From contig CM126207.1 in assembly GCA_052327205.1 (NCBI GenBank), forward strand, positions 51,770,001 through 51,834,000: 64,000 bases of DNA. The letters run 5' to 3'. Shown here one piece after another: positions 1 to 43,919 of the stretch. A program made the position numbers and the translations under genes. Position 1 is the first letter of the stretch, and each line of letters begins with the position of its first letter. A model generated the notes under the pieces. It made no database searches. It had not been told where the DNA came from and saw nothing but the letters and a program-made list of their open reading frames with translations. The DNA comes from Somniosus microcephalus. Lineage: Eukaryota.

Positions 1-968
1 GGTATGTTGGCCTTCATAGCGAGAGGGTTTCAGTACAGGAACACAGATGTCTTGCTGCAGTTGTACAGGGCCTTGGTGAGACCTCATCTTGAGTATTGTG
101 TGCAGTTTTGGTCGCCTTATCTGAGGAAGGATGTTCTTGCCATGGAAGGAGTTCAGCGAAGATTCACCAGGCTGATACCTGGGATGGCAGGAATGACGTA
201 TGAGGAGAGATTGGGTCGATTGGGCTTGTACTCGCTGGAGTTTAGAAGAATGAGAGGGGATCTCATTGAAATTTATAAAATTCTGACAGGACTGGACAGA
301 CTAGATGCAGGAAGGATGTTCCCGATGGTCGGGGAATCCAGAACCAGGGGTCACAGTCGAAGGGTAAGGGGTACGCCATTTACGACAGAAATGAGGAGGA
401 ATTTCTTCACCCAGAGAGTGGTGAACCTGTGGAATTCTCTACCACAGAAGGCAGTTAAGGCCAATTCATTAAATATATTCAAGAAGGAGTTGGATATATT
501 TCTTAAGGCTAAAGGAATCAAGGGGCATGGGGAGAAAGCAGGGACCGGGTACAGGAAACTTTGTGCTATCTGGCACCGCCGGGACCGAGCTGTTGCCGTT
601 CCCTCAAAACTGCCGGACACACCAGCGCTGATGTTGAAACATACGGAGATTTTCAGCTCCGTGTGAATCAACAAACCCTGTTGCTTAGCAACAGCTTCTA
701 AACAGTCGGCAAGTGTCTCTAGCTGAAGCTGTTGCTTAGCTACAGACCTTGCAGAGCTTGACTGTTGAGAAAAAAGCAACGAAAAGGAAAAAAACCTAAA
801 CGGCTCCTGATTTTTGCCGGTGGCTCGAGCTTGCCGGACATTTAGCCTCCGGATAACACAAAGTTCCCTGTACTGAACTTGGATGATCAGCCATGATCGC
901 ATTGCATGGCGGAGCAGGCTCAAGGGGCCGAATGGCCTACTTCTGTTCCTATCTTCTATGTTTCTATG
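1..968 (+). mobile_element. CR1 LINE 3' end (ORF2 C-terminus plus 3' tail), interrupted by a MITE at 552-870
   Basis: ORF 4..666 has CR1 ORF2 C-terminal motifs (LVRPHLEYCVQFWSP, LGLYSLEFRRMRGDLIE, FFTQRVVNLWNSLP). The tail resumes at 873 (gatcagccatgatc...aatggcctact...ttctatgtttctatg). Confidence 0.92.
552..870. mobile_element. Non-autonomous Tc1/mariner-type MITE (copy 1)
   Basis: About 22-bp TIRs (CAGGAAACTTTGTGCTATCTGG ... CCGGATAACACAAAGTTCCCTG) flanked by TA at 550-551 and 871-872. Removing it restores the CR1 tail gggTActga. Confidence 0.88.
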
Positions 969-3900
969 GCCTAGCAAGCCACTCTGTTGTATCAAACTGC
1001 TACAAAAAACAAGAATAAAATTAGGTGGACTACCCAGCACCGATCTAGGCATTGGATTCCGACAAGACAAAGGCACACCTAGCCCAGTCGACTTTGCAAA
1101 GTCCTCCTCACTAATATCTGGGGACTTGTACCAAAATTTGGAGAGCTGTCCCACAGACTAGTCAAGCAACAACCTGACAGTCATTCTCACAGAATCATAC
1201 CTTTCAGCCAACGTCCCAGACTCTCATCACCATCCCTGAGTATGTCCTGTTCCACCGGCAGGACAGACCCACTAAAGGTGGCAGCACAGTGGTATACAGT
1301 CAGGAGAGAGTGGCCCTGGGGATCCTCAGTGTTGACTCTGGACCCCATGAAGTCTCATGGCATCAGGTCAAACAATGCCAAAGAAACCTGCTAATTACCA
1401 CCTACCGCCCTCCCTCAGTTGATCAATCAGTACTCCTCCATGTTGTACACCACTTGGAAGAAACAATGAGGGCAGGAAGAAACAATGAGGGCAGCAAGGG
1501 CACAGAATGTACTCTGGGTGGGGGAATTCAATGTCCATCACCAAGAGTGGCTCGGTAGCACCACTACTGACTGAGCTGGCCGAGTCCTGAAGGACATAGC
1601 TGCCAGACTGGGCTTGCGGTAGGTGGTGAGAGAACCAACATGAGAGGAAAAACCTACTTGACCTCTTCCTCACCAATCTGCCTGTCACAGATGCAATCTA
1701 CCTGTCGCAGATGCATCTGTCCATGACAGTATTTGTTGTAGTGACCACCGCACAGTCCTTGTGGAGACAAAGTCTCATCTTTACACTGAGGGCACCCTCA
1801 TCGTCTTGTGTGACACTACCACCGTTCTAAATGGAATAGATTCAGAACAGATATAACAGCTCCAAACAGCAGTAGCAGAATTGTATTCCACCACAATCTG
1901 TAACCTCATGGCCCAGCATATCCCTCACTCTATCGTTGCAATAAAGTCAGGGGACCACCCTTAGTTCAATGATGAGTGTAGAAGAGCATGCTAGGAGCAG
2001 CACCAGGCGTACCTAAAAATAAGGTGCCAACCTAGTGAAGCTACAATGCAGGACTGCATTCATACTAAACAGCAGAAGCAGCATGCTGTAGACATGCCTA
2101 AGTGATCCCACAACCAATGGATCAGATCAAAGCTCTGCAGTTGTGAATGGACTAAGGGAGTGCTGTAACCATTCTATGAATGGTGGTGGACAATTAACAA
2201 CAACTACTTGTATTTATATAGCGCCTTTTAATGTTGTAAAACGTGCCACAGCGCTGCACAGGAGTATTAGAAAACACAAAATTTGACACTGAGCCACAAG
2301 GATAAATTAGGGCAGGTGACCAAAAGCTTGGTCAAAGAGGTAGATTTTAAGGAGCGTCTTAAAGGCGGAAAGAGAGGTAGCGAGGCGTAGAGGTTTAGGC
2401 AGGGCATTCCAGAGCTTGGGGCCTAGGCAACACAAGGCACGGCCACCAATGGTTGAGCGATTATAATCGGGGATGCTCGAGGGCAGAATTAGAGGAGCGC
2501 AGATATTGCGGGGGGTGGGGCTGAAGGAGATTACAGAGATGGGGAGGGGTGAGGCCATAGAGGGATTTGAAAACAAGGATGAGAATTTTGAAATTGTGGC
2601 GTTGCTTAACGGTCAGCGAGCACAGGGGTGATGGGCGAATGGGACCTAGCTGCCCGTGTCCTAACTCGCACCAAGTTTTGGATGACCTCAAGTTTACGTA
2701 GGGTAGAATGTGGGAGGCCAGCCAGGAGTGCGTTGGAATAGTCAAGCCTAGAGGTAACAAAGGCATGGATGGGGGTTTCGGCAGCGGATGAGCTGAGGCA
2801 AGGGCGGAGACGGGCAATGTTACGGAGGTGGAAATTAAACAACTGGCAGGAGGAGGCGGCTCCATGAACATCCCCATCCTCAATGACGACAGAGTGCAAA
2901 AGACAAGGCTGAAGCGCTTGCAACCAACTTCAGCCAGAAATGATGAGTGGTTGATCCATTTTGGCCTACTCCTCAGGTCCCCACCATCACAGAAGCCAGT
3001 CTTCACCCAATTCGATTCATGCCATATGATATCAAGAAATGGCTGAGCGCGCTGGATATAGCGAAGGCTATGGGCCCTGACAACATCCCGGCTGCACTGC
3101 TCAAGACTTGTGCTCCAGAACTAGCTGCACCGCAGGCTAAGCTATTTCAGTACAGCCACAACCCTGGCAGCTACCTGCGAAAGCAGAAAATTGCTCAAGT
3201 ATGTTCTGTCCACAAAAAGCAGAACAAATCCAATCCAGCAAATTACCGCCCCATCAGCCTACTCTCTCAGCAAAGTGATGAAAGAGGTTGTTGACGGTGC
3301 TTTCAAGCAGCACTTGCAAATAACCTGCTCAGCGATACTCAGTTTGGATTCTGCCAGCAGCACTCCATTCCAGACCTCATTACAGCCTTGGTCCACGTGG
3401 ACAAAAGAGCTGAATTCCAGAGGTGAGGTGAGAGTGACTGCCCTTGACATCAAGGCAGCATTTAACTGAGTGTGGCATCAAGGAGCCTTAGTAAAAAGTC
3501 ACACCTAGCACGAAGGAAGGTGGTTGTGGTTGTTGGAGGCCAATCATCTCAGCCCCAGGAGTGTGTCTCAGGGCAGTGTCCTGGGCCAAACCATCTTCAG
3601 TTACTTCATCAATGACCTTCACTCCATCACAAGGTCAGAAGTGGGGATATTCGCTGAACTGCTTGGATAATGAAGCAGCCAGTGCCTGCATGCAGCAAGA
3701 CCTGAACAACATTCAGGCTTGGACTGATAAGTGGTAAGTAACATTCGTGCCACATAAGTGCCAGGCAATGACTATCTCCAACAAGAGAGAGTCTAACTGC
3801 CTCCCCTTGACCTTCAACTGGATTACATTAGTCGAATCCCCCACTATCAACATCCTAGAGGTTACCATTGACCAGAAACTTAACTGGGCCAGCCACGTAA

Positions 3901-4490
3901 AAATACTGTGGCTGCAAGAGCAGGAGTATTTGTAAACTGGCGAGCGACTCCCCAAAGCCTATCTACTATCGACAAGGCACAAGTCAGGAGTGTGATGGAA
4001 TTCTCTCCACTTGCCTGGATGAGTGCTGCTCCAACAACACTCAAGAAGCTCAACACCATTCAGGACACAGCAGCCTGCTTGATCGACACCCCATCCACCT
4101 TATACATTCACTCCCTCCACCGGTGCACCGTGGGTGCAGTGTGTACTATCTACAAGATGCACTGCAGCAACTCGCCAAGGCTTCTTTGACTCCCAAACCT
4201 GCGACCTCTACCGCCTAGAAGGACAAGGGCAGCAGGCGCATGGAAGCACCACTACCTCCCAAGTTCTCCTCCAAGTCACACGCCATCCTGACTTGGAAAT
4301 ATATTGCCGTTCCTTCATTATTGCTGAGTCAAAATCCTTGAACTCCCTCCCTAGCAACACTGGGAGTACCTTCGCCACATGGACTGCAGCAGTTCAAGAA
4401 GGCGGCTCATCACCACCACCTTTTTGAGGGCAATGAGGGATGGGCAATAAATGCTGGCCTTGCCAGCGACGCCCACATCCTGTGAATTAA
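969..4490 (+). mobile_element. Degenerate near-full-length CR1-clade LINE (APE endonuclease + RT), family copy 1
   Basis: Fragmented ORFs with APE motifs (ITTYRPPS) and RT motifs (AMGPDNIPAALLKTCAPELA, NPANYRPISLLS, ALDIKAAF). The 3' tail reads gggcaataaatgctggccttgccagcgacgcccacatcc. Confidence 0.88.
2198..2832 (-). mobile_element. L2-clade LINE 3' fragment nested in the CR1-clade element
   Basis: Minus-strand ORFs carry IHAFVTSRLDYSNALLAGLP and GPKLWNALP, typical of the L2 C-terminus. The (CAA)n tail is at 2198, and aattaa flanks both sides (2192-2197, 2833-2838). Confidence 0.85.
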
Positions 4491-4689
4491 TAAGGCGACC
4501 CCCCCCCCCCAAAAGTTATCCAGGCAACTTATCCATAGTGTGATAATTTATTGAATGAGAAGGGAATAAAAATCTATGGTTTAGAAAACCTTGAAAAAAT
4601 GGCTTACCCCTGAGTTGCTTGCACTCTGTACCACTATCAAGTTTGAACCAGCAGCTTTAATTTATTTGGACCTCCTTGTGTTTTCTTCC

Positions 4690-5050
4690 CTTTCCCCTCC
4701 CCTCTTGAAGAGTGCTGACTCATGGGAATCAGCAGCCCTGTGGTAGTGTCCGTATAGTCATTCTTTATCAATGACTGTGACTATCGGCAGGCTTTGCAAA
4801 TGTTTGGGAGAGATATGAGGCTTCGCAGTCAGTCCTGATCCTGACCTCATCAGCTTGGGTCCGTAGCAAGAATTGTCATAGGTTTTTCTGCCGAGCCCAG
4901 GAATTCCTACTCTAACACCACAACTTGTTCCTGCGACAGCCGAGATTAATTAACTCACCAGGGATAACACCTGAGAACTTTCTGGTTTGTATGGTGCAGG
5001 GACTACACCGTATAATACAATTACCCGTGTAACCATCACAGGAGTAGCCA
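4690..5050 (-). mobile_element. Decayed LF-SINE-like element
   Basis: Weak by-eye similarity to the copies at 22030-22320 and 37830-38240; boundaries approximate. Confidence 0.35.
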
Positions 5051-5428
5051 CCTTTGTTTTGTTATAAAATCATGGTCTAAGTACGAAGGTATTTTGCATA
5101 ACATTTCTCTTTAGATTCTGAGCCTCAGACTTGTGTTATGAAATTATCTTGCCTTTTACAAAGTACATTTACATTTTTTTCTCTGTTACAATGATCAATT
5201 TTTGCTCACTTTGCACCTCTGCATTCTTACTTTTCATCCGATTACTACCCTGCCTTCAAGTTCCTTCTAATGGATATAATACGTATGTTTAAAATTATGT
5301 GCAATTTATGCAGTTCTCAACTAGTATTTTGTTGTCCATCCAACATGCCCATGTTCTGTAACCTTTTATTTGTGAAATAGTCAATAATGGGATTTCTTTC
5401 TTCCTTTTTTCTTAAATGCTGATCTTAG

Positions 5429-5440
5429 GCTGCCCTTCAG
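5429..5440 (+). CDS. ACAP2: ACAP2 12-nt microexon (AALQ), phase 0-0, BAR-PH linker
   Basis: Polypyrimidine tract, TGC at 5417-5419, then ttag|GCTGCCCTTCAG|gtaagt. It joins in frame to the DFSS exon at 16585. The paralog ACAP3 has TLLQ before DFS (recalled). Confidence 0.8.
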
Positions 5441-7823
5441 GTAAGTTAACGTACATTTATGTATTATACTAATGTGGTAGATCATCTAAGGACAACTGAA
5501 GTAGGAATACTATTAGTCCTACAAAGATGTTTCAGTATCTTTAGGTGTTTCATACACTCTTTCTAGTCTCTTCCCTTAGCCTGATCTAATCCATCTGGCC
5601 ATTTGTAATCACTACTTTGTCTTCTATTCAGACTTGCTGTCCTGCATTATGAGCCATTGGTCTTGGACTCTAATTTCTCAATAACCAAGTATAAAAATAT
5701 TTTCCTTTTGACAGCAACTATTTATGTTTGCAACTAGCAATCTGCAGAAGTTGGACAGTTTTGAAAGAAACTACCCCAAATTGTTGGTTTAGTTTGAATC
5801 TCATCTGGAGGGGCCACAATGACTGGTGTGAGAAATTGAAAAATGGCACACTGGGCTGAATAGAGAGGGTGCTTTACTCTGCATCTATGCATGATATACC
5901 TAACCTGGGACTATTTGCTGCTAATTTGGGAAAGTATTCCATTCCTCATCACTAAAATTCCTTATCTCGATGAGCACAAAATTACACAAGGAAATGTTTT
6001 AAATACGTATTTATACTAAAGAAAGTCTTTGTTTTTCCATTGACAAGCCAGAATTGTAATGTATTTGATGTCAAGTGGTTAAAATTGGCTAGGCTTGCTT
6101 AGAAGCATTAAGAAAGGAATGGGAAGTAAAATATTGTAAGTACTCAAATGTTTACTTTTTTTTACCTTTTTTGTAAAGTGTTCAATTCAGCATATCTTGG
6201 CAAGAAATAATGGCGAGAAACTGAAAATAGGAATTTATCTGGTTTTGAAAATTTTATTCAAATTAATGTCGAGGCCAGTACAGGATTTAAAAAGGTGCAG
6301 TGTTGCATCATGATGTTGAGTTAAAGTTGGAGTATTAGATCTAAGTAATGTCAGAACATTTTTGCAAGTGATCAGGTTTGCTACTATATATTATTGAAGT
6401 GTTCCTGGCAATACAGACGTAACACGAGAGATTGATGAGACCATTTTAATTAAATTTATCTGAATGCTTTAATATTTCATGTGATTGCATTGCATCTAGC
6501 AGAAGGCAAATTACATAATTTAGTTAACCTAAACATTCTAACTTACACTTGTGCTTTTCTTTTTGCGACATTTTAATAGCAAATGAGAAACCTCTTAATA
6601 TTTTAATAGCAAATGAAAAAGCTTTACAATGCATGGGTTCATTTACAACTCACTGGGTGCACTGTCACATCAGCGGGCTGGCATCAGCTGACTTTCATTG
6701 TGAAAGAGTCGAAGCTGATAGAACACGATCTCGATTCTCCTATATTAGGACAAGCATCATGGACATCTTGTTTGTTTGATAAATAACTAGATATTTGTGC
6801 AGTGTGAATGAAAGGAAAAGTAATGCCTGGATTTCAAAGGAAGTGACTGGTTTTAAAGAATATGGTGCTAGTCAATATGAAGTACTTATTCTGAGCTTCT
6901 AGACTGCCAGTTTGTATTGGCAGTGGTAACTCTGGTGAAAGAAAAATTGCTGTGTTTCACTGGAATATTTGTCATTTGTAAGGGACAATTACAATGAGAT
7001 TCTTCAGATTCCGTTACGTATTATATATGGTAAGTTTTTTTGTGAAATATGTGTTTTTATATAAAGGGTATTTTAAGCTAATGTTTCAAGTGGTCTGAGT
7101 TATGTTCTGTAAATCTACAGATAATTTCAGTTACTGCTTTCAGTAGCTTATTTGGGTTTGCTTTAGTGAATGCAGCTCCTCCATATAATGGTGGTATTTT
7201 GCAGCTATTAAATTTGATTCTCCATCTACTAATAGATGCACTATAACCTTTTTAGCTTATGAATTTTATTCCCCAAAGACTACAATATATTTTTTGGTAT
7301 CTTAAATAGAATATTTATCCAAGGCCTTGGGAACTGCTGTCTAACTAGCTGTTGTGTAGAAGTGTCACCAGGTGCTTAATAGTTTTCTCCGCAGAATGGA
7401 AGAGATGACATGACTGTTCTAAAGTTGCATGTGATATAATCGGGTTCAATTTACATTAATAGACAGTGAGCCCTTCTGCAATGTCAATTGAGTAATGAGC
7501 AACATAATGCTACAATAATGCATAAAATGAATTCACATTAAGTTTAAAAAATGAATTGTGTTCTTCTCAAATGTATTATGCTACAGAAGGTTTGCTACTG
7601 CTTATTAACACCTATTTAGTTTAATTAATTGGTTTATTGTATTTAGGAATGTTATGCTTAAGTTATTTAATATAGTGTTTATTACTCAATTTAGTAAGTA
7701 CCTTCTCTTCAGTCAGTTTTTATCACTGAAAGGGAAATTCACCAATTTTGTGTTTTTTTGCCAAGTGCATTTTCAGCCCTGGGTTATTGTAGGTCATTTT
7801 ACATGGCCATAATACCAAATCTT

Positions 7824-7922
7824 TTAAAATAAAAATAGAAAATGCTAGAAACCCTCAACAGGTCAAGCAGCATCCTTGGAGAGAGAAACGGAGTTAATAT
7901 TTCCTGTCGATAACCTTTCATG
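7824..7922. mobile_element. Penelope-type terminal-repeat fragment
   Basis: Same repeat as 18505-18680, 24097-24199 and 59709-60056. A 12-bp direct repeat ataccaaatctt flanks it (7812-7823, 7923-7934). Confidence 0.6.
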
Positions 7923-8689
7923 ATACCAAATCTTGATCTATCATTTGAGACTACAGAAATTTAACACTCTGTATGCTCTGACACCAGATACAGTCTAATC
8001 TGTAAAGTTCTACCCAGAAATCCGTAAGAGGCTGTAGTTCACCCTGCCTGAATTCTTAATCTCCTGGATCTGACAGAGTTGGAAATAACGCATAGCAGAT
8101 GCAATTGTAAATCTGCTTTTACACTCCAGTTTTTCCCAATTTTTTTTCCAGCAAAAGGAGACCAGTTAGTTCAAGGGATGTAAAATGATTACCCCAACCT
8201 TGCGCGTGAAGTCCATTCTTTCTTGACCTTGCCTGCTTTCTGGAGGAAATACTACATTATTTAGAACAGAGTATGCTAGCACTTTAGGCAGTGGGCGTTG
8301 GGCCAATGGTATGACTAACATCCCTAAAAGTTTTTAATGATTGATGAAATGCATTATGTTTTATGTTTTGAGTACCAAAGGATCTTGTGAAATAGTAAAA
8401 AATTCATGGTTAGGATTAAATGTGACTATAATATGCCTTTTGACTCTCTGATCCATATGCAAATGCCAAAAACTAGTAACAGTTTTAATTTTGGCTATTT
8501 TTTCCCGACAATATGGATTAATTGATGTTCCATGTGAGAGCAGGTTTATTTTACAGTAGTAACTGAATATTACAATATTCCTGGCTGAAAGTATTTTCCC
8601 CCCTCAATATTAAATTCCTATTTGACATTTTTAAGGACTATTTTTATGTGGAGATGAACTGTCAGTCCTTATTATATTTGACTCATTCA

Positions 8690-9850
8690 TGCATCCCACT
8701 ACCCGCACCCTCGATCTTGCGTCCCAGCTCCTAACACACCAACTTCTTCTCAGCCTCACGCTTGCTGGCATCAACAATCTGACTCATTCCTTTGTCAATA
8801 TATACATTGCCCACCTCCTTCAACCCATCCACACAAAAAACAACTGTCTTTCTGTTCTCTATCTCCAACTTGAGTGTTGGATTGCATTTCTGCTTCACAA
8901 CTTATCTCCCACTGCTCCTTGCTCAAGACCCTACAATTGGCTTCTGTGACACTGTGACTGCACTAAGGTTACAAAGGGCATCCTGCATGAATCTGACTGT
9001 AGCTTGTTGCACCTCTTCATCTTTCTCAACCTCCCCGCTGCCATTGAGACTGTTTATCACTCTCTAACCTCTTTCAAAGTGTACTGTAGCTCCCTCCATT
9101 GTCTCCTCTGCAGTTCACCTCCATGGCACTGCTCTCTCCTGAATATGGTCATACCTTTTTGGAATGAAGATATTGAGTCTCCTGCAGCAGTTTCTCCCCT
9201 TTCCTTGTCCTGCCATGGTTCCTGCCACGGTTCCTTCCAGGCCATTGTACATCATTTATATGCTACTCTTTTTGGCAATATGTGAAAGCGTGGGTCTGCT
9301 TCCACGTGTGACAATGACATCTAGCTTTACTTCTCAACCTTCTCCATCAATCCCATGGCTGTTAATACACTGCTCAACTACCTGTCTGAATTAAGATCTG
9401 GAGAAGCCAACGTTTTCTCCCAACTTATTCAGCAAAACTGAAGTCTTCCTCTATTTCCCACGAGCACCTAAACTCCTCAGCTACTCCCTCAGGCTCAGTC
9501 TGAAGATGCACAACACTTGCGTAATGCTTGATCTGAGCTCCGCTTCCCTTTCCTTCTGTACCATTACCAATGCTGCTTTATTCCATCTTTGCATCTTCAA
9601 CCACCTCCACCTTCGCTGCTGAAATGCTAATATTCATCATGTCACATTCGCTAATGCTCTTCTAATTGGGCAGCCACCCTCCATAACCTGCAACTTGTTC
9701 AGACTCCCATAATTTGCATCTTCAGCACAAAGCCCTGCAATGCCAACATCCCCTATCCATGCCAACCTCCTCTTGCTCTCAGTAATACAGCAAATTGACT
9801 GCAAGGTCCACACTTGAAATCTGCCCATGCTATTGTCCCACCCTACTTCC
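8690..9850 (+). mobile_element. Highly decayed L2-like RT fragment
   Basis: C/T-rich composition with remnants resembling ADDTQLY (gacaatgacatctagctttac) and KTE (caaaactgaagtc); boundaries approximate. Confidence 0.5.
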
Positions 9851-10254
9851 ACATTCTCTTCTAGCCACACGTACCCAAAAATACATGAATTGTGGTTTGA
9901 CACGACTGCATTTATATAGGTTATAAATCTCCAAAAACTATGAATTATTTTCATTTAAATTCATGGCAATGTGATGTCCAGCCTATAATCTTTCAAAAAG
10001 TGTTCGATTTAACTGTTGCTCTTACACCAAATGTGGTGAATTCTTGTGCCTGAAAGAACCCAGAAATAAGGATTCCTATGTTATATGTTGCCACACCGTA
10101 ATTCCATTCATGGATTTCATCGTGAGTCTGATTTAGGGTACACACCTAAAACTTCATAGCCCATCTTTTCACTTTACAGATGCTGATTGAACTGCTGTGT
10201 ATTTACAGCATTTATTTTTCAGATTTCCAGCATTTGCAGTTTTCATAGTTTTTT

Positions 10255-13200
10255 TTATGGGATGTGGGCATTACTGGCAAGGCCAGCATTTATTGTCCAT
10301 TCCTAGTTGCCCTTGAGGTGGTGGTGAGCCACTGCCTTGAACTGCTGCAGTCCGTGTGGTGAAGGTACTCCCACAGTGCTGTTAGGTAGGGAGTTCCAGG
10401 ATTTTGACCTAGCGACTACAGAGGAACGGTGATATACTTCTAAATTAGGATGGTATGTGACTTGGAGGGGAACTTCTAGGTGGTGGTGTTCCCATGCGCC
10501 TGCTGCTCTTGTCCTTCTAGGTGGTAGAGGTCGCGGGTTTGGGAGGTGCTGCCGAAGAAGCCTTGGCGAGTTGCTGCAGTGCATCTTGTAGTTGGTACAC
10601 ACTGCAGCCACGGTACGCCGGTGGTGTAGGGAGTGAATGTTTCAGGTGGTGGATGGGGTGCCAATCAAGCGAGCTGCTTTGTCCTGAATGGTGTTGAGCT
10701 TGTGTTGTTGGAGCAGCACTCATCCAGGCAAATGGAGAGTATTACATCACGTAGAAACATAGAAGATAGGAGCAGGAGTAGGTCATTCGGCCCCTCGAGC
10801 CTGCTCCGCCATTCAATCACACACTCCTGACTTGTGCCTTGTAGATGGTGGAAAGGCTTTGGGGAGTCAGGAAGTGAGACACTCGCCGCAGAATATCTAG
10901 CCTCTGACCTGCTCTTGTTGCCACAGTATTTATGTGGCTGGTCCGGTTAAGTTTCTGGTCAATGGTGACCCCCAGGATGTTGATGGTAGGGGATTCGGCA
11001 ATGGTAATGCCGTTGAATGTCAAGGGGCGTTGGTTAGACTTTCGCTTGTTAGAGATAGTCATTGCCTGGCACTTGTCTGGTACGAATGTTACCTACCACT
11101 TATCAGCCCAAGCCTGAACGTCATCCAGGTCTTGTTGCATGCGGGTATGGACTGCTTCATTACCTGAGGAGTTGTGAATGGCCCTGAACACTCTGCAATC
11201 ATCAGCGAACATCCCCATTTCTAACCTTCCCTCCAACATAAGGTCATTGATGAAGCAGCTGAAGATGGTTGGGCCTAGGACACTGCCGTGAGGAACTCCT
11301 GCAGCGATGTCCTGGGGCTGTGATGATTGACCTTCAACCACCACAACCATCTTCCTTTGTGCTAGGTATGACTCCAGCCAGTGGAGAGTGCCCCCCCCCC
11401 CCCCAGTCCCATTGACTTCAGTTTTACTAAGGCTCCTTGATGCCACACTCGGTCAAATGCTGCCTTGATGTCAAGGGCAGTCGCTCTCGCCTCACCTTTG
11501 GAATTCAGCTCCTTTGTCCATGTTTGGACCAAGGCTGTAATGAGGTCGGGGGCCGAGTGGTCTTGGCGGAACCCAAACTGGGTATCCGTGATCAGGTTAT
11601 TGGTGAGTAAGTGCTGCTTGATAGCACTGTCGAGGACACCTTCCATCACTTTACTGATGATTGAGAGTAGACTGATGGGGCGGTAATTGGCCTGATTGGA
11701 TTTGTCCTGCTTTTTGTGGACAGAACATACCTGGGCAGTGTTCCACATCGTCGGCTAGATGCCAGTGTTGTAACTGTACTGGAACAGCTTGGCTAGAGGC
11801 GCGACTAGTTCTGGAGTACAAGTCTTCAGCACGATGGCTGGGATGTTGTCGGGGCCCACAGCCTTTGCTGTATCCAGTACGCTCAGCTGTTTCTTGATAT
11901 CATGTGGAGTGAATCGAATTGGCTAAAGACTGGCTTCTATGATGGTGGGGACCACAGCAGGAGGCCAATATGGATCAACCACTTGGCACTTCTGGCTGAA
12001 GATGGTTGCAAATGCTTTAGCCTTGTCTTTTGCACTCACGTGCTGGGCTCCACCATCATTGAGGATGGGGATATTCATGGAGCCTCCTCCTCCCATTAGT
12101 TGTTTAATGCTCCACCACCATTCACGACTGGATGTGGCAGGACTGCAGAGCTTTGATCTGATCCGTTGATTGTGTGATCGCTTAGTTTTGTCTATAGCAT
12201 GCTGCTTCTGCTTTTTAGCATGCATGTAATCCTGTGTTGCAGCTTCCCCAGGTTGGCACCTCACTTTTAGGTATGCCTGGTGCTGCTGCTGGCATGTTCT
12301 TCTACACTCCTTATTGAACCAGGATTGGTCCCCTGGTTTGATGGTAATGGTAGAGTGAGGGCTATGCCAGGCCATGAGGTTACAGATTGTGGTGGAATAC
12401 AATTCTGCTGATGGCCCACAGCGCCTCATGGATGCCCAGTTTTGAGCTGCTAGATCTGTTTGGAGTCTATCCCATTTAGCATGGTGGTAGTGCCACACAA
12501 CACGATGGAGGGTGTCCTTGGTGTGAAGATGGGACTTCGTCTCCACAATGCCTGTGCGGTGGTCACTGCTACCAATACTGTCATGAACAGATGCATCTGC
12601 GACAGGTAGATTGGTGAGGACGAGGTCAAGTAGGCTTTTCCCTCATGTTGGTTCTTTCACCACCTGTTGCAGGCTCAGACTGGCAGCTATGTCCTTCAGG
12701 ACTCGGTCAGTAGTGGTGCTACCGAACCACTCTTGGTGATGGACATTGAAGTTCCCTACCCAGAGTACATTTTGTGCCCTTGCCACTCTCGGTGCTTCTT
12801 CCAAATGGTGTTCAACATGGAGGAGTACTGATTGATCAGCTGAGGGAGGGCAGTAGGTGGTAATCAGCAGGAGGTTTCCTTGCCCATGCTTGACCTGAAG
12901 CCATGAGACTTCATGGGGTCTGGAGTCAATGTTGAGGACTCCCAGGGTCACTCCTTCCCGACTGTATACCACTGTGCCGCCACCCCTGGTGGGTCTGTCC
13001 TGCTGGTGGGACAGGACCTACCCAGGGATGGTGATGGAGGAGTTTGGGACATTGGCTGAAAGTTATGATTCTGTGAGTATGACTATGTCAGGCTGTTGTT
13101 TAACTAGTCTGTGGGACAGCTCTCCCAATTTTGGCACAAGTCCCCAGATGTTGGTGAGGAGGACTTTGCAGGGTCGACTGGACTGGGTTTGCTGTGTCCA

Positions 13201-13345
13201 TAGCCGGTGCTGAGGTCGATGCTGGGTGGTCCGTCCGGTTTCATTCTTATTATTGTGTTTCGTATCTGTTTGTTGCAACTGAGTGGCTTGCTAGGCCATT
13301 TCAGAGGGCAGTTAAGAATCAACCACATTGCTGTGGGTCTGGAGT
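10255..13345 (-). mobile_element. Near-full-length CR1-clade LINE, family copy 2 (inverted relative to copy 1)
   Basis: Minus-strand ORFs: LLTNIWGLVPKLGELSHRLVKQQPDIVILTES (APE start), NYRPISLLSIISKVME, QFGFRQDHS, GVPHGSVLGPTIFSCFIND, MFADD. It has the same 3' tail as copy 1. Confidence 0.9.
10751..10815 (-). mobile_element. 65-bp 5'-truncated CR1 tail nested in LINE copy 2
   Basis: tagaaacatagaagataggagcaggagtaggtcattcggcccctcgagcctgctccgccattc is the reverse complement of the CR1 tail type at 873-968. It is flanked by atcac repeats. Confidence 0.8.
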
Positions 13346-13493
13346 TACATTTATTGTATGTTATTTTATTGTATGTTTGTGCACATCTCTCTCTCTCACA
13401 TCTTTGTCACACTCTAGCTCTCCACCTTTTTTGGACTCTGTCTTCCCCTGCTCATCTATCGCTTTAGCACAGTGTCTTAGATTTAAATATATT

Positions 13494-14103
13494 GGCCTGA
13501 AATTTGCAGTCCTGAAGCACGCTCTGCACAATGATCTCTCAATCCCTGTGACGGGAACTTACGGTTTTCTGACCTTGAATTGATTTCAATGGAACTTAAT
13601 GGGATCCCCTTGTTCGAACTGCTGTGATGGCAACAGGCTGCCTGAGCAGCCAATCAAAAGGCAGAATTCTCAGACAGCGAACAAAAGGAAGTTCTAACTT
13701 TTTAAAATAGTTAGAGCAAAAGAAAGATTGGAGTTCTCGCATAGGGGAAAAGGCAAGCCTGAAATAAAGATGCACAAACTTTAAAAAAAAAATGTAAACT
13801 TAATTTTTATTAAAATGGACAAATTTCACACTGCTCAAAATTATAATTAATTTTGCAGGCCCTTAACATTTGCTTAACAGTCTCCGCTTTGGGTCTAACT
13901 TTTAGTGGGGAATTTAACAGCATACATACTGCAGAAGTGCTGAAGTTTTCGTCCGTTTCAATGATTTATGAGATTTCGCTGCCGGCTGCGGGGGGTGGCG
14001 GCACAACACAGCCTGTTTCGGAGCTGCCATTGACAATTTGCCAGTTCACCGTCATTCTGACCACACATTCGGGGCCTGTTTCAGCTATAGAAATTTGATT
14101 GCC
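13494..14103. mobile_element. Old Harbinger-type non-autonomous element
   Basis: ATT|GGCCTGAAATTTG ... AAATTTGATTGCC|ATT: degenerate TIRs with ATT on both sides. Confidence 0.45.
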
Positions 14104-14865
14104 ATTTAGTGATTTTCTGCACAACTGCTTCAAAAAGTGATTCTGGTTGCCTTGGTTCCTGGTGCAATGAAGTACACAGCATTTATGTTACAGGACCGGT
14201 TTCAAAATACAGACAGTAATACAAAAACTGGGCTTGCTATCTATAGACTTTCCTTGATACTCAGCGTGAATGCAGAAGAAATAGTAACAATTAACGACAG
14301 CAATGTGGCTTCAGTGGCCATGGGGGGAGAAAATACACATTGAACTCGTACTTGTGTCCTGTAGGGATGCACACTGCCTTTGTTGCTGGCAGCATCCGTG
14401 TAATAAAAATGCAGCACTGTTGTTGATAAAGCTAGTGGGCAGTTTATGATTTAATTTAATCTCCTCCAAATGGCAAGAAAAAGGAAGGATAGTTAAAGTA
14501 ACTAAGGAGAATGTACACCATTAACCAATAAATGTATGACTGGACAAGGTGATTTAATTGAGAAATTTTGCGATATTTCATAGAAGGTGCATAATAGAAA
14601 CATGACTACTGGGTTTATTTCTTAAGTTTAGAAAAAAAAATTTTGCAACTCAAGTCAGAAAGGAGTCTTCAAATAGAATGATATGGTTTTGCATAAAACA
14701 GATCAAAGAAGCAACTATAAAGTTATGATCCTGAAACCAATTTTCTTTTAATCAAAAAATTACTTTTTAGTTTTGAAAGTTAAATACTGCACATTGTCAA
14801 ACTACTTTATGATATCATAAACCTTATGGGGATTCAAAAAGAATAAGTTCCATATCGGATACATT

Positions 14866-15676
14866 GGCCCCGATTTTCCCCCAGCCGTCGGGTGGGATTT
14901 CAGGCAGGCGGGGGCTGAAAATCCTGAATTTTGGGGGTCCCGACACTCCCGCCCAAAACCCCACCCCACAAGTTTCAGGGGTGGGGGGTACCCGCCGAAA
15001 CCAGGCGGGAAGGGATTAGTGCCAATTAACTGCCTGTTAACAGTTAGTTAACAGGCAGTTTTTAGCCTAATCCCTATTTGAGGGGTTTCGTGTGGGTTTC
15101 CCGACTGCTCCAAACCACGCCAGGTTAGAGCAGGCAGGCCGTCGGGTTGGAGGGGTCGCGATGTTGGCGCTCAGGTGAGTGATGGGTGCATGAGTGTAAA
15201 GGTAAGTGTGTTTGGTGTGTCTAAAGTGTGTAAAGAACTTTTACTTACCTGTACTTGCCTTTACAGCCTTTCTTCCTGTAGCCGTCGGGAGCCCATCACT
15301 CAGCCGGAACTGAAAGCTGAACGTCTGCGATCTGTCAAAAGTGGCAGCCTTCAGCTTTGAGTGCTGGTAAGAGTTCTAACTGAGTCTGTGTGGAATGACT
15401 CATGCCAGAACTCAGACTGTCAGTGTTTGACAGCTTCAAACAGCTGTAAAACACTGATATTTCATCTGTCAAAAATTCTTGACAGATGAAATTTCAGTCT
15501 GTGACGTCACCTGTTGCCGGGTGGCCCTTAATTGGCCTGCTGAGCCCGCTGGGCGGGCTCAACAAGGTCAATGAAGGGAAAATCGCACGACTTGGCCGGA
15601 CGTCTAAGTAGGCGGGTCAAAAACCCGAAAGGGGAAGTCCTGCCTTATTCCCGACAGGTTCGGGAAAATCTACCCC
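14866..15676. mobile_element. Harbinger-type non-autonomous element
   Basis: ATT|GGCCCCGATTTTCCC..GTCGGG ... CCCGAC..GGGAAAATCTACCCC|ATT: imperfect TIRs, 3-bp ATT TSD, GC-rich interior. Confidence 0.65.
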
Positions 15677-16584
15677 ATTTTATTTTCAGAGTAGCAAAAA
15701 TGAACTATATTTGGATTGTTTCCTAGTAATACGTGGTCATTGAAAATGCTTTATCTTCTAAGTTTTAATCGTGCATGTAGCAGATCATTTTGTTCTACAT
15801 CCTATGCTCGTTATTCCACTGCTATCTGTGTTGTTCCACCTCTGCTATGCTTAACCTGTCTGCCACAAAGCAGTAAGAAAGGACAAAAAGTGTGATGTTA
15901 TACTTTGTATGCTCTTTAACTTAAAATATTGTTGCTAATAGGGGAAAAAACATGGTGGACTAATACTTAGAGGAATGACCTGAAGAAGATGGCGAGGTCT
16001 TTTACTATGCCATTGGCAGTGTCAGTAGCTAGCCAGGTTAGGATGACTGACTGACTGAAACATTTATGTGAATGGCTGGCAGAGTTTTCCAAGACCAATT
16101 GGGGAAAGTGCTCTCTCTCATCAGCTTGAGGAGCAGTTACACTCTTGCTGCATAGTATGGGAGCTATGATGCCAGATGGAAGGAAACAAGGTAAAAAAAT
16201 AAATTAAATGAAGCTAAACAAAGCAAGTACTTCACATGCAAGGCAGCAGTGCCCCCATTGTGCTTCACTAAAAACTATTATGCTTCAGTGACAACTCTGC
16301 CTAGCAAAAAGTGGAAGTCAGAGTGATTATAATTAGGCTCGTGGTGTTTGCTCTCTCATTAAGATGGTGATCCTTTAAGAACTTGGAAAAGCAAAATTTG
16401 CTGTTACGACAGAGATTATTGTGGTAACTAATATTTCACTCTGTTCCAGCAACACAATTTTACATGTTCATAGGATGGCCATGCTACAAACATTACTAAT
16501 TTAAACTATCTTTCGTACATCATTTCTTTCCTGTCTGTCAAGTAATTGTTGCTTTTATATTTGGTTTAAAATCATATACTTTAG

Positions 16585-16697
16585 GACTTCTCCAGCGATG
16601 ATCCCAAGATAGAATTTAACACCGACGCTGCCAATGGCATAGTCATGGAAGGATATTTATATAAACGAGCCAGCAATGCCTTCAAAACCTGGAACCG
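16585..16697 (+). CDS. ACAP2: ACAP2 exon, PH domain start (DFSSDDPKIEFNTDAANGIVMEGYLYKRASNAFKTWNR)
   Basis: ttag|GAC ... CG|gtaag, 113 nt; near-identical to the ACAP2 PH N-terminus. Confidence 0.96.
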
Positions 16698-17259
16698 GTA
16701 AGATTAGACTTTGGTTTTAGATTGAAATACTCTTCTGCAGTTGCTATGCAATCACAGTACAGTAAAGGGCATGTGGCTAACATAAAATCGTTGATACAGT
16801 GTACACCTATGGTTTTGTGCTGATTATCATTTGTCAGTAGAAATGTGAGAATAATGTCACGAGAGTCCATTACATTAACTGATGAGAACATAAGAATTAT
16901 ATTTCACAACCAAATGAAATAGCTAGTTACCAGATTTTTTTCATCTTGCATGTAATGACGGAATACAATACAAAATTGTCAAACATCAGATTTGGCTGTC
17001 CAAAATGATACTCTAGTTTTCCTTAAACATTTCCAATTAAACCTTGTATGATTTGGAAAATTTAAACTACAAAAGCAGTTTATCGAACAAGCCAAGGCTT
17101 ACAGTAGATCATTAGTGACTGATTTAAAGTTGGGAAATGCTGCAAAGCCACCTAGGCTCAAAGCGGTACACTCCAGTTAACCAAGCTTGATTACAACTGA
17201 AACTGCTTGGAAAATTATGCTAGCCAAAAGCAAGTAGACTCATTCTATTTGGCTTGAAC

Positions 17260-20894: not shown

Positions 20895-20915
20895 GAAAAA
20901 GACCCCCCACATCAG
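20895..20915 (+). CDS. ACAP2: Candidate ACAP2 21-nt microexon (KKTPHIR), phase 2-2, PH beta1-beta2 loop
   Basis: Long U-rich tract, then acag|GAAAAAGACCCCCCACATCAG|gtacca. The phase fits the 16697/23190 intron exactly, giving TWNR-KKTPHIR-RWFS. Confidence 0.7.
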
Positions 20916-28908: not shown

Positions 28909-29010
28909 CTGCTGTTAGTAACACTGAGCCACGTCGGGAGTCTCTCTTCTGCCCAGATGAGCTAGACTCGCTATTCTCCTACTTTGACACCTCTTCAAAA
29001 TCTAATAGTA
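28909..29010 (+). CDS. ACAP2: ACAP2 symmetric cassette exon (AAVSNTEPRRESLFCPDELDSLFSYFDTSSKSNS)
   Basis: ccag|CT ... A|gtaagt, 102 nt, phase 1-1. The SLFCPDELDSLFSYFD motif is recalled from ACAP3. Confidence 0.85.
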
Positions 29011-37223: not shown

Positions 37224-37282
37224 ATTACGTCTAGCAAAGATGAATGATGAGATGCGAGAATCTGAAGGCCTTGGACAGTCAG
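37224..37282 (+). CDS. ACAP2: ACAP2 penultimate coding exon (LRLAKMNDEMRESEGLGQS)
   Basis: acag|A ... TCAG|gtcaat; the phase-1 donor matches the acceptor at 43819. Confidence 0.92.
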
Positions 37283-37368
37283 GTCAATATTCCAATAACA
37301 GTCATACAGAGATGCAATATAAAAAATGCATGCAGGAATTTATTAGCTTGCAACTAGAAGATTCTTGA
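37283..37368 (+). CDS. ACAP2: ACAP2 read-through alternative C-terminus (GQYSNNSHTEMQYKKCMQEFISLQLEDS*)
   Basis: The frame stays open past the weak donor to TGA at 37366-37368. The peptide resembles the recalled ACAP3 end TELQFRRCIQEFISLHLEES. Confidence 0.8.
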
Positions 37369-37829
37369 GCCTTGTTAAAATTAAAGGGTTATATTAACAT
37401 CTACTGTGAGGGGCCGGGGGAAGGAATGGGAGCCTCATGACCTTGTCATTTGGCAGGTGATGCCGTACTTAAATTGATGTATTTCACCCAATTGTAGGAC
37501 CAATATTTTGACCAGCTAAATCTCAAGAAATGGAGTATCTCTTAATCAGAAAAAAGTAGATACCAAAGTTATTTGGCAAATATAAGCAATGCACCCCAAA
37601 AGTTTAAAACATTCAGTATTTACTTAAGAGCTGGGTTCCTTTAGTTATATTTTCCAGAAGATTTTGATCTTCGACATTGCATAGCTTGAACTTTTAGTAA
37701 AAATTAGGTGATACTTAATAAAGTATTGAAATTGAGAGATAGTGAATGTTATTGCTCTGTTGAGTCAGAAATTGACTTTAAAAGGTAAAAATAGGACATT
37801 AAAGGAAATTATTTATGGAGTGATGAGTT

Positions 37830-38240: not shown

Positions 38241-41200
38241 GTTTCTAGAGGTTTTTTTTCCTGTTATATGAAAGTTGTTTTCTTCTTGCACTTTACCCCC
38301 AACATGTCATTCTTGATTGAAAAAGTTGTAAAATTTGTGTTCCTGGATCATTACCTATGATGCTGTTGAACTAGTTACTGGGAAACGCTGAACAGCAGCA
38401 TGAGTTCACTTGCCCTAGAATTTTCCTCAGGGAATGGTCTTTTGATTTGATATTCCCTTGGAATGCCATGGCTGAAGTCACTGGGAAGAATTCATGGTCT
38501 ACCATGGTGCCACAATGCACAAACATAACATATTATGGCACTTGGCTGCCTGGTGTGGATATAGTTTAATTATTGGACAACACTAAGAAATTCTTGCCAT
38601 TGAACTTTAAAAAAAAATATATAAACATCAGTGTTTAGTTTTAATTATATTCCTATAAAGAACTGCAGTGTAACTAGAAAATATTGCAATTTCAGTCTGT
38701 TTTTCTGTGGTGTTACTTTCATTTGTCAGGAAAGGACAGTAAGATGTGAACATTTTAAGTATTATAGATGGTGTTTTCAGTTCTTTGGGTTTTTTTTTAT
38801 TAAGTTAATTCAGATGCTTGGCCTGTTCAAAAATAAACCAATATTTTTCTCTGAATTTCAGCAAGTTTTTATGAAGTCATTTCACTTTGTGCAGATAATT
38901 TTGTTTAGTTTTACTTTTTATCAATTTAGCATTTATAAAGGGTTCCCAGCATTGAAATGTGACCCATACAGAATTAGGTACAGTAGTGACATTTTAAATT
39001 CATTTGGAGACATCAACAATAACAGGGAAATCATAAAATGGGGAAATTATTGCAGAAGTATAAAAGGTATTTATAGTAGGTGAGGAGCTATGTTGGGAAG
39101 TTATTAGAAAACATTGTATTGTTATTTGAGATTCTGTAACTAGCAGTAACAATTCTGTAGCTATAGACCATATCTTGTTGATAGTTATAACTTTACTATG
39201 GTAATTACTCAGAGTTCTGTAGTCTACTAGTAAAAGACCACAAGATAAATAATTATGCACTGTTGAAAGCCAAAGCCATATGCAACATTCTGTGCTGCTT
39301 TTATATTTAGGTTTTAGTTATCAATCACAAAAGCCAAATTGGTGCTAGTAAATACATCTGATTGTTTCCTATCATTGCTTTTATTCTTGTCTGTACTGTA
39401 TGTGTCTTTTTGAATGTATATTGTGTGCCTTTTTGTGTTCTTAATCTGGGATGCTAATTGCAGTATTACTGTATTTGTGTATGTACTTTCTGCACTTTAA
39501 ATGCAGCATTACTGTAAAAAGAAATGCAGTTACTGATGTAAGATTTTTAAATCTTAAGTATGAAGACTGCAAGTTCATTGCCACTAAATGTTAAGTATGC
39601 TTTAAAAAATAACAGCTGATAGGATTGACCTGCATTAACATTCCATAGTTTCTGCTACTTTAGCAATCTGTAAAACATGATCCATCTCTTGAGGTAATGA
39701 GTTAATTAAAACTCTTGCAGTTGTAATAGTATTTTCAGAAATTAATTGTTCCCTCAAAACTCATCCCATAACTTCTAATATGACTATATTAGCTTCACAA
39801 AAGGTTTCCAATTATTTATGCTGAGTGTGAGCTCACTAAATGCATTTAAACTGCCCGTAAGTATCATTCCATCTTTTTGGTTTACAGGCTGATTCTCTTA
39901 AAATAAGCCTTAACTTCAGATACTTTTTTGAAATATTTTTTCTAACGTATGTAGGTCATCTTTAGTGGCATGTTAACCTGTTCTTTTACTGAATGGCATA
40001 ACGTTTCAGTACTTGCCTGTAAATTACTTAAACTCTGCAGGTTATTGCTGCATCTTAATATAAAGTTGTCAGATATTTAAAACAACTTTGTCAAATTTGC
40101 AAATGTTAACGTATAGTCAGATCTACATGTGATGGAATACAGTTTTACGCCCTAGGTCCAAATGGACAAAAAATATATTTATTTGTGTTCAAACTTGCAG
40201 GTAATTTTTGATTGTATTTAAATGTAAGCAACAAATTAGAACTTGCAAATGATGAATTGTTACGATTTTGCTTCCACCAGGGTTGTATATGGATCTGATT
40301 GTGCATGAAATTCTTGCCTAACTATATATTCCTGGTTAAAAGCAGAACTCCCAATTTGTTCTTAACTTAGTCGGCGCTAATGCCATCATTCTGGTTATAA
40401 AGCATGTCTTGTTTTCACTAAACCTTAGTATTTCCCTTATCTACTGATTTATATCACTGCTTTTAAGATAAAATAATTTCGGATTGACTGACTGCAAAAG
40501 AGACTTGTTTAGTTCAAAAAAATTAAAATGAACCCAATAATGCTACTGTTTTTCAGTTTTCACTTTCAAATGGAAGAATTAATTGAAATGCTGGCATAAT
40601 TGGCAACAAAATGAAACACGGCACTGTTACATTACTATGTGTAGAGTGCAAGTGCTCCTAAGTCCTTATTTGTGACTATCATTGGTCTCTTTCTAAACTA
40701 AATATCCAACCTACTTCAGTAAACTATGCTTAAGATTTTGAGTTCTGAAGAAATTATTTTTTTAAACTTTTTAAAATCAGTTTCATAGCATTACAGTTAG
40801 ATTAGTATGATAGGAACATGAGATTAATTGAATTACATCAATATATGGCAGTGATTTTAATTATTTTGAAAATGTTAAATTAAGATAAATTTAATTGATT
40901 AATGAACCGTTTATAATAATGTATACCATCAACTAGAATATGCATGTGGTCTGAAAAATGCTGTTACAATTTTGGTTAGGTTTGCAGAAATGGGGTTGGT
41001 CTTTGTTTATTTAAGGTATCTTGTTTATTCACTTTTGCCAATTGGTTCTCCTCTTCCCACTCTTCTTGACTGTTTCCAAACTCAACACACACCATCTACG
41101 ATTGAGGGGACAAGCTGCTCCCAGCCCCCCCTCGGTGCCTTTCAGAAGTTAGCTCCTACAGGATGTGTAGCAATAGCATCAGGGGGTGTCTCCTTTGCAT

Positions 41201-42734
41201 TTTCCTTCTGTTTGTGGGTTTGCACTGGTCTCTATTTGGTGCTTGTCCAAAGCAATGCTGATAAGATTCAGAATTTGGTAGTTTAGGAAATTGTGGTCAC
41301 ACAAATACAAAGTACCATTAAGTGGTGAGATGAAGCTTTGATGCTCTGCTGAGCTTTCAAACCTCTGCTGTATTACTGTGGCGTGTCAGTGAGTAGTGTT
41401 TCCCCACAGGGAGAAAAAATAAAAGGGAGAGTATTTCCTGGGTTGTTGATTCATGTGTAGCTTGAGTGATTCAGAGCAACATTGGTGGAGGCCTGGCAGC
41501 AGGGTAACCATGGACTGCAAAGGCAAAGAGGAGGGAAATGTTTTTGGGGGTGGAGGTAAAATTAGAGGGTAAATAACTTCCCCAAAACGTGCACACATAT
41601 CTTAAGTGTGGAATAAGTGGTGAACTAAAGAATTTGGGAAGATTTGAACCAAGTGTTTAAAGGTTGAAGCTATCATTGCATTCTTTCTTATAAGCTGTCT
41701 CTTGATTCTTGCACTCTTGATTTCAATTTTGCTGCTCTGAGGTTCATGCAGGTACAGTAGTATTACCTTGTGTGGTGTATATATTTCTTTTTCTCCCAGT
41801 ATTGTAAGCTATTTACTGGTCATTGCCAGAAATTCTTGTATATGTCTTTTTTTATATCAGTATTTTAAAATTAGCCTCCTTTTATGCTGTTTCCAAACGT
41901 TTTTATCTAAATCTGTTGACACCCAACATCTTTTTTGAATTCTCCACAAATTAATTATTTTAAGTCAGTGAGAGATGGCAAATTATGCTCAATAAACATT
42001 GTTATAGTGCTAGCTAAGTTATATTGAAAAATCCCATTAGCCTTTGATATTTTGACACTTTCAGCATTGTGTGTATGTTTCTATATTTCCCCTTTGTTGT
42101 TGATAGTGAGATATTCTATGGAGGATGATGAATTACTAGGTAATTTACCATCCCATGAAGTGCCATGTCCTAGCTCTAATTCAAAAATTAAAAACTCTGT
42201 AAATACAAAAAATACTGACTATCTGATGCAGGGTTGTCATACACAAATTTGGACTCGAGATTCAATTCGGGAGCAAATAATTAAGTTTAATTCTTGAGGT
42301 TTGATGTCATCTGAGCTTCTTGATTGGATTCTGTCCTGTAGTCCACTACATTGCCCTCTGTAGAGTGGATCAAAGTATACTGCTGTATTTGAAAAGTTAT
42401 CCTCCTACCTCAGACTATAGCTGTTTGACATGCCTTGCCAATACTTTGCAAAACATTTCACAAAGAAAATATCAGCAGCAGCTTTTATAGCATCTTTAAT
42501 GTTTTACATTGTTGAAGATATGCTGGCAATGTTTGGATAAGTAGGAGGGAAACTACATGAAGTCAGTCCCATCGAGGTGGACTATACAGGAGAGATGATG
42601 TCATAAAATGGAGCGTTTGATCGAGTTGAATATTGCAGAAAGGTCAAGGGTTAATGTATCAGTGTCACAAATGGCAGTGTTGGTTTTCACCAGGGCCGTC
42701 TCCATGCTATGGGCAGCGTGGGAGTCAAACTAAA

Positions 42735-43818: not shown

Positions 43819-43919
43819 GTGATGCGACCTACCAGGATATTTTCAGAGACTTTTCCAACATGGCCTCTCATAACCCTGAAATATTAAACCGATTCCAGCG
43901 GCGATCAGAGACTGATTAA
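43819..43919 (+). CDS. ACAP2: ACAP2 terminal coding exon (GDATYQDIFRDFSNMASHNPEILNRFQRRSETD*)
   Basis: ttgcag|GT ... TAA at 43917-43919; matches the ACAP2 C-terminus GDETYQDIFRDFSQMASNNPEKLNRF. Confidence 0.95.

Follow-up and report, generated by a model that had tools for sequence, protein, structure and literature searches.

Can 12 nucleotides in the middle of a shark intron be an exon and, if so, what decides when they are spliced in? The site lies in the window (the whole stretch of 64,000 nucleotides of Somniosus microcephalus DNA analysed here), in the membrane-trafficking gene ACAP2 (centaurin-beta2) of a cartilaginous fish with a genome of 6.4 Gb. An earlier note on this DNA had read it as a microexon with an SRRM3/4-type neural signature, already present before ACAP2 and ACAP3 separated. 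How much of this reading can the splice signals carry? Is the exon known from other animals? What would four extra residues do to the protein? The reading that we prefer, with a probability of about 80%, is that of a conserved in-frame ACAP2 cassette that lengthens the end of the BAR domain by AALQ. Most tissues would likely skip it, and SRRM3/4, by way of a UGC, would likely bring about its inclusion in neurons and certain endocrine cells.

The ACAP2 gene and its intron

An ArfGAP exon in the window finds its best matches in ACAP2-like proteins of rays and sharks (96-100% identity), and the BAR, PH, ArfGAP and ankyrin exons are of the ACAP2 type rather than that of ACAP1 or ACAP3. By tblastn, ACAP2 exons were traced from stretches of the contig upstream of the window through position 43916. 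A search with 38 residues found three ACAP loci in the genome in total, and two separate paralogs lie elsewhere, one of the ACAP3 type on contig C25 and an ACAP1-like one on C38. The exon upstream of the site (ending in ...HSTIQQK) lies outside the window, with its end 4,760 bases ahead of it at 51765240 of the contig; the next large exon begins at 16585, so the intron that holds the microexon measures 21,344 nt and the microexon stands at position 10,189 of it.

What do the splice signals look like? The layout that had been claimed, a pyrimidine tract followed by TGC at -12 to -10, AG, 12 nt and GTAAGT, holds base by base (Table 1). The tract and the TGC are separated directly by AAA, and a sequence scan found no second AG between 5381 and the acceptor of the microexon. 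With 12 nt and a preserved frame the exon falls within the 3-27 nt class of neural microexons, and it shares with that class the set-back tract and a 5' splice site that appears strong when judged by eye. A UGC between tract and AG is present too, although TGC is common at other acceptors of the gene.

Table 1. Coordinates of the features discussed; positions are those of the window unless a contig is named.
Feature	Position	Strand	Basis or remark
12-nt phase-0 cassette microexon of ACAP2, GCT GCC CTT CAG (AALQ)	5429..5440	+	sequence; ortholog isoform pairs
Polypyrimidine tract, pyrimidines only, 21 nt, 15 nt ahead of the exon	5393..5413	+	sequence
TGC (UGC) at -12 to -10 relative to the exon, predicted SRRM3/4-response element	5417..5419	+	sequence; role predicted from the architecture in 10.1101/2024.09.17.613571
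3' splice site TAG	5426..5428	+	sequence
Consensus 5' splice site GTAAGT after exonic CAG	5441..5446	+	sequence
Next ACAP2 exon downstream, with the BAR-PH linker and the first PH strand (DFSSDD...TWN)	16585..16697	+	phase 0 start; seen spliced in a relative's RNA contigs
Second, independent ACAP2 microexon, 21 nt (KKTPHI)	20895..20915	+	insert directly follows the first PH strand (...AFKTWN)
Third cassette exon, 35 residues (...RRESLFCPDELDSLFSYFD...), 105 nt	~28909-29009		an optional part of ACAP2 in catshark and rodents
Intronic stretch of 3.3 kb with few repeats, surrounding the microexon	4494..7800	.	self-BLAST; the window has 10 gaps of this kind
ACAP3 12-nt phase-0 TLLQ exon	contig C25, L017:2634-2645		GTAGGT donor; 46-kb intron, same position as the ACAP2 exon

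How far do the motifs alone carry?

A strict microexon signature, defined after this site had been seen, has a single match on the + strand in 164 kb (this microexon) and none on the - strand; over 60 kb at the ACAP3 locus it has none on the + strand and one on the - strand. A loose scan of the window returns 11 microexon-like candidates, and block-wise dinucleotide shuffles of the intron yield a match of some length in 25 of 300 cases and a 12-nt match in 1 of 300. TGC falls within -22 to -4 at 6 of the 16 other acceptors of the ACAP2 gene. The exon had also been placed in about 2.5 kb free of recognisable transposable elements. That island is real and slightly longer than thought; it is weak evidence nonetheless, because the window has 10 gaps of at least 1.5 kb that are poor in repeats, as judged by self-BLAST against fetched DNA rather than with a TE library, and as strong support for the microexon it was rejected. 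The segment 5250-5600 is single-copy in the genome, and repeats cover about half of bases 1-16584. Dense repeats occupy 1-4493 and 10246-13353, with a reverse-transcriptase-like (LINE-type) character as read from the sequence, without a library search.

Since shuffled introns yield matches, TGC is common and the repeat-poor gap is one of 10, the motifs are suggestive, not decisive. Is the site then no true exon at all, but a sequence that happens to resemble one, as a long intron may contain? The shuffles and the loose-scan candidates lend this idea what support it has, but the 12-mer codes for exactly the insert of the orthologs, in the right intron and phase, and it is the sole AG/GT-flanked 12-mer coding for AALQ in the 164 kb. 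Isoforms of the orthologs have in effect already refuted it, and we leave it next to no probability.

An exon already annotated in orthologs

The identity of the exon is settled mainly by these orthologs, because they carry the same peptide as an optional insert at the same junction. Among the fetched proteins of the ACAP2 type that could be anchored on HSTIQQK, AALQ follows in 36 of 179. Pairs of isoforms that differ by AALQ alone, at residue 248, occur in a catshark (XP_038673148.1 and XP_038673149.1), in the chimaera Callorhinchus (XP_007900600.2 and XP_007900601.2), in a skate (XP_032887221.1 and XP_032887222.1) and in the rat; they bear out the claim of a real microexon. In the ACAP2 series of Mus caroli and Mastomys the insert stands at the same place, after residue 248, and AALQ is also found in paddlefish ACAP2 and in two Logan-assembled proteins (P0081, P0101). 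Several annotation series of sharks and rays are without the AALQ isoform (0 of 8 in one cluster, none in three more). Three ACAP2 models of sturgeon and paddlefish (P0058, P0060, P0130) have an extra segment of 20 residues at the AALQ junction, which stands after AALQ when both occur.

The likeness to the cassette of RefSeq and UniRef (mouse XP_017172651.1, catshark XP_038673148.1, Callorhinchus XP_007900600.2) extends to the peptide, the junction after residue 248, the phase and the optional status; with the peptide identical, the species alone is new, and here the exon is known from DNA. Because the isoform series of catshark, Callorhinchus, skate and rodents carry it, the 12-nt AALQ exon is, going by annotated proteins, already known as an optional exon from chimaeras to mice. 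As a sequence feature it adds little to what is annotated in cartilaginous fishes and mammals, and it belongs to a well-studied class.

Other cassettes of the gene

The isoform series of catshark, Callorhinchus, skate, rat, Mus caroli and Mastomys show three independent ACAP2 cassettes of 4, 7 and 35 residues, and all three are found in the window (Table 1). The 21-nt exon has no TGC near its acceptor. A similar insert of seven residues (KTPTHVR) stands at the same place in a lamprey protein (P0531), so this exon may predate the jawed vertebrates. The third cassette resembles a segment of ACAP3 and has a TGC near its acceptor. If the donor at 37284 is ignored, translation farther downstream (37224-37369) ends in an alternative C-terminus (GQYSNNSHTEMQYKKCMQEF...stop), which a minority of the fetched ACAP2 and ACAP3 isoforms match. 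The last intron holds two tiny candidates bounded by AG...GTAAG with pyrimidine-rich acceptors, 38730-38738 (9 nt) and 41800-41803 (4 nt); neither has protein support among the fetched proteins.

RNA of a close relative

Is the exon spliced in at all in such a shark? RNA contigs of a close relative (runs X1 and X2, tissue not recorded) join the upstream exon straight to 16585, that is, they contain the skip junction only, and they skip the 21-nt exon as well. Junctions were read here from loose ends at the downstream exon, the three-exon stretch spanning 21.5 kb. A search for runs with the sequence listed none that is recorded as RNA. Raw reads under the same species label (X6 and X7) have almost no depth on the ACAP2 exons and none on 16420-16800. 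Both splice forms are annotated in orthologs, and the skip form alone appears in the relative's RNA (X1, X2).

One could take this to mean that in this species the microexon has fallen silent, still whole in the DNA but hardly ever spliced in, and the shark and ray annotation series without an AALQ isoform point the same way. Against it, neither the splice signals nor any of the four codons is damaged; isoforms with the insert are annotated for catshark, skate and chimaera; rare forms are lost from contigs, and the tissues of the relative's runs are not recorded. A silent remnant is therefore very improbable, and an exon that is real, optional and mostly skipped remains the reading that we follow.

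SRRM3/4 and probable neural inclusion

How would such an exon be controlled? A short exon with a set-back pyrimidine tract should be poorly recognised by default. Where SRRM3/4 is expressed, it would rescue the microexon through the UGC before the acceptor, so that most tissues would skip AALQ, and the BAR domain would carry it at its end in neurons and certain endocrine cells. In the published accounts of the SRRM3/4 programme (10.1101/2024.09.17.613571; PMC12871342), a UGC between branch point and AG is reported for about three quarters of the dependent microexons, where it helps without being strictly required. The shark exon shares with that neural programme the length of 3-27 nt, the preserved frame, the strong donor, the set-back tract and the UGC before the AG, and it is by this layout of the sequence that it is assigned to it.

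The human gene offers a second line of evidence. The supplements of PMC7935315 list an ACAP2 event (HsaEX0001804) with a PSI of 56-88 in brain and retina (whole brain 60, cortex 56, cerebellum 86, retina 87), 12-30 in adrenal and 7 in one sample; for every other listed sample the value is 0. According to the same supplements, its PSI goes from 0 to 51-81 between mutant and wild-type SRRM4 at 24 h in six of six cell lines, and from 4.7 in progenitors to 63 in neurons. A brain- and retina-enriched, SRRM4-induced event of the same gene is the behaviour that the shark splice site would predict, and the proposed rescue follows the model of this human exon. But is it the same exon? The 21-nt human event is HsaEX0001799 in that source, with a PSI of about 10 in normal breast and lung, lower values in neurons than in progenitors and a weak response to SRRM4 (1 to 10). 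By elimination, HsaEX0001804 is very probably the ortholog of the 12-nt exon, the 105-nt cassette being the remaining alternative; we infer this rather than read it off, because the length and coordinates of the event are absent from the rows examined. ACAP2 is also named as host of a microexon of at most 27 nt in an SRRM3-regulated islet programme (10.1101/2022.04.02.486809). A full-text literature search returned no paper for HsaEX0001804. Neither ACAP2 nor ACAP3 was found in the supplements of PMC12626424, PMC7821500 and PMC12868881, in 12 of the 18 supplement files of PMC9303857 or in five of the six of PMC4387716. A pattern scan of metagenomes gave 24 matches; none shows flank similarity to the shark microexon, and as homologous exons they were rejected as chance.

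SRRM3/4-type neural regulation is thus supported indirectly: the splice-site layout, two loci with an SRRM_C domain in the genome and the human event with its inferred identity speak for it, and on the other side the four runs examined, two of them without coverage there, contain no inclusion junction. Could the exon be real and optional in this fish, with no SRRM3/4 control or neural enrichment and with an incidental UGC? The frequency of TGC at the other acceptors would allow this, as would the possibility that the 105-nt cassette is the human event, and fish annotations mostly include the corresponding ACAP3 exon, which is without a nearby TGC in this genome. The set-back tract, the position of the UGC and the consensus donor do, however, fit the published architecture, and ACAP2 hosts an islet microexon in a pattern that the 21-nt exon does not fit. 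Such an exon outside SRRM3/4 control is in our view distinctly unlikely, and by analogy SRRM3/4-driven neural inclusion of the shark exon is likely.

ACAP3, ACAP1 and the origin of the exon

The TLLQ insert of ACAP3, which the earlier note had named, exists in this genome as a separate exon of the same length, position and phase (Table 1), and it sits in a repeat-poor gap of its own (2.2 kb). Like the ACAP2 exon it is 12 nt long, in phase 0 and at the same intron position, and its peptide (TLLQ or TLMQ) ends in LQ or MQ. Unlike the ACAP2 exon, it has no TGC nearer than -60 and is included in most fish members: of the 74 listed in six clusters, which came from a search seeded with the inclusion form and are therefore biased towards it, 62 carry the insert, two skip it, one has another form and nine cannot be scored.

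Is the exon then older than the two paralogs? The shared position, length and phase favour this and suggest that a 12-nt exon arose before ACAP2 and ACAP3 split. That part of the claim is supported, but only 6 of 12 bases are identical, the final CAG of both exons is expected from the donor consensus, and the flanks give no significant alignment. The 9.2-kb intron of the ACAP1-like paralog on C38 holds no convincing 12-nt exon. The cyclostome entries are not decisive on the origin, with a linker of skip length in hagfish and one that is two residues longer in lamprey. A fourth vertebrate paralog (coelacanth and butterflyfish; P0423, P0387) is without the insert and forms its own clade in a tree of 23 proteins and 702 columns, in which ACAP1 and ACAP3 are sisters with weak support (FastTree 0.80, ultrafast bootstrap 68).

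Possible consequences for the protein

Where in the protein does AALQ land? The insertion site aligns directly after the residues that match Q247 and K248 of ACAP1 in its BAR-PH structure, whose chain has five extra residues and is read here with the numbering minus 5, as checked against R236, E239, Q240 and R241. In the account of PMC6663034, these two residues of helix 4 make an antiparallel contact between dimers in the membrane lattice, as predicted by simulation. Going by the alignment, AALQ would add about one helical turn and thereby shift the linker and the PH domain. AlphaFold2 folds of the catshark isoforms, from alignments of 29 rows, are of low confidence (mean pLDDT 44.5 with the insert and 46.2 without). 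The last BAR helix reaches residue 252 in the inclusion form versus 245 in the skip form, which is a hint only, because pLDDT there is below 50.

ACAP2 is listed in a table of PMC6724607 as a Rab35-linked GAP for Arf6 in neurite outgrowth. A possible consequence, put forward tentatively, is that AALQ adds roughly one turn to the last BAR helix, just past the lattice-contact residues, and so tunes the placement of the PH domain or the packing of the lattice in Arf6/Rab35 endosomal recycling. A large effect is argued against by zebrafish larvae, in which most single-microexon deletions gave little or no phenotype according to PMC12626420. The literature search found no paper testing the effect of the 12-nt exon on ACAP2.

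A more far-reaching proposal, which we hold to be rather doubtful, is that one ancestral 12-nt exon was rewired, becoming gated by SRRM3/4 in ACAP2, nearly hard-wired without a proximal UGC in ACAP3 and lost in ACAP1, such that four residues, by lengthening the last BAR helix beyond the positions of ACAP1 Q247/K248, would give the ACAP2 of neurons and islets an ACAP3-like BAR-PH coat. A functional comparison of both ACAP2 isoforms is worthwhile, since the insert lies beside a lattice contact that is known and ACAP3 offers a contrast. If the proposal were true, AALQ would be a four-residue switch of coat geometry, altering membrane tubulation and kept unchanged from sharks to mammals.
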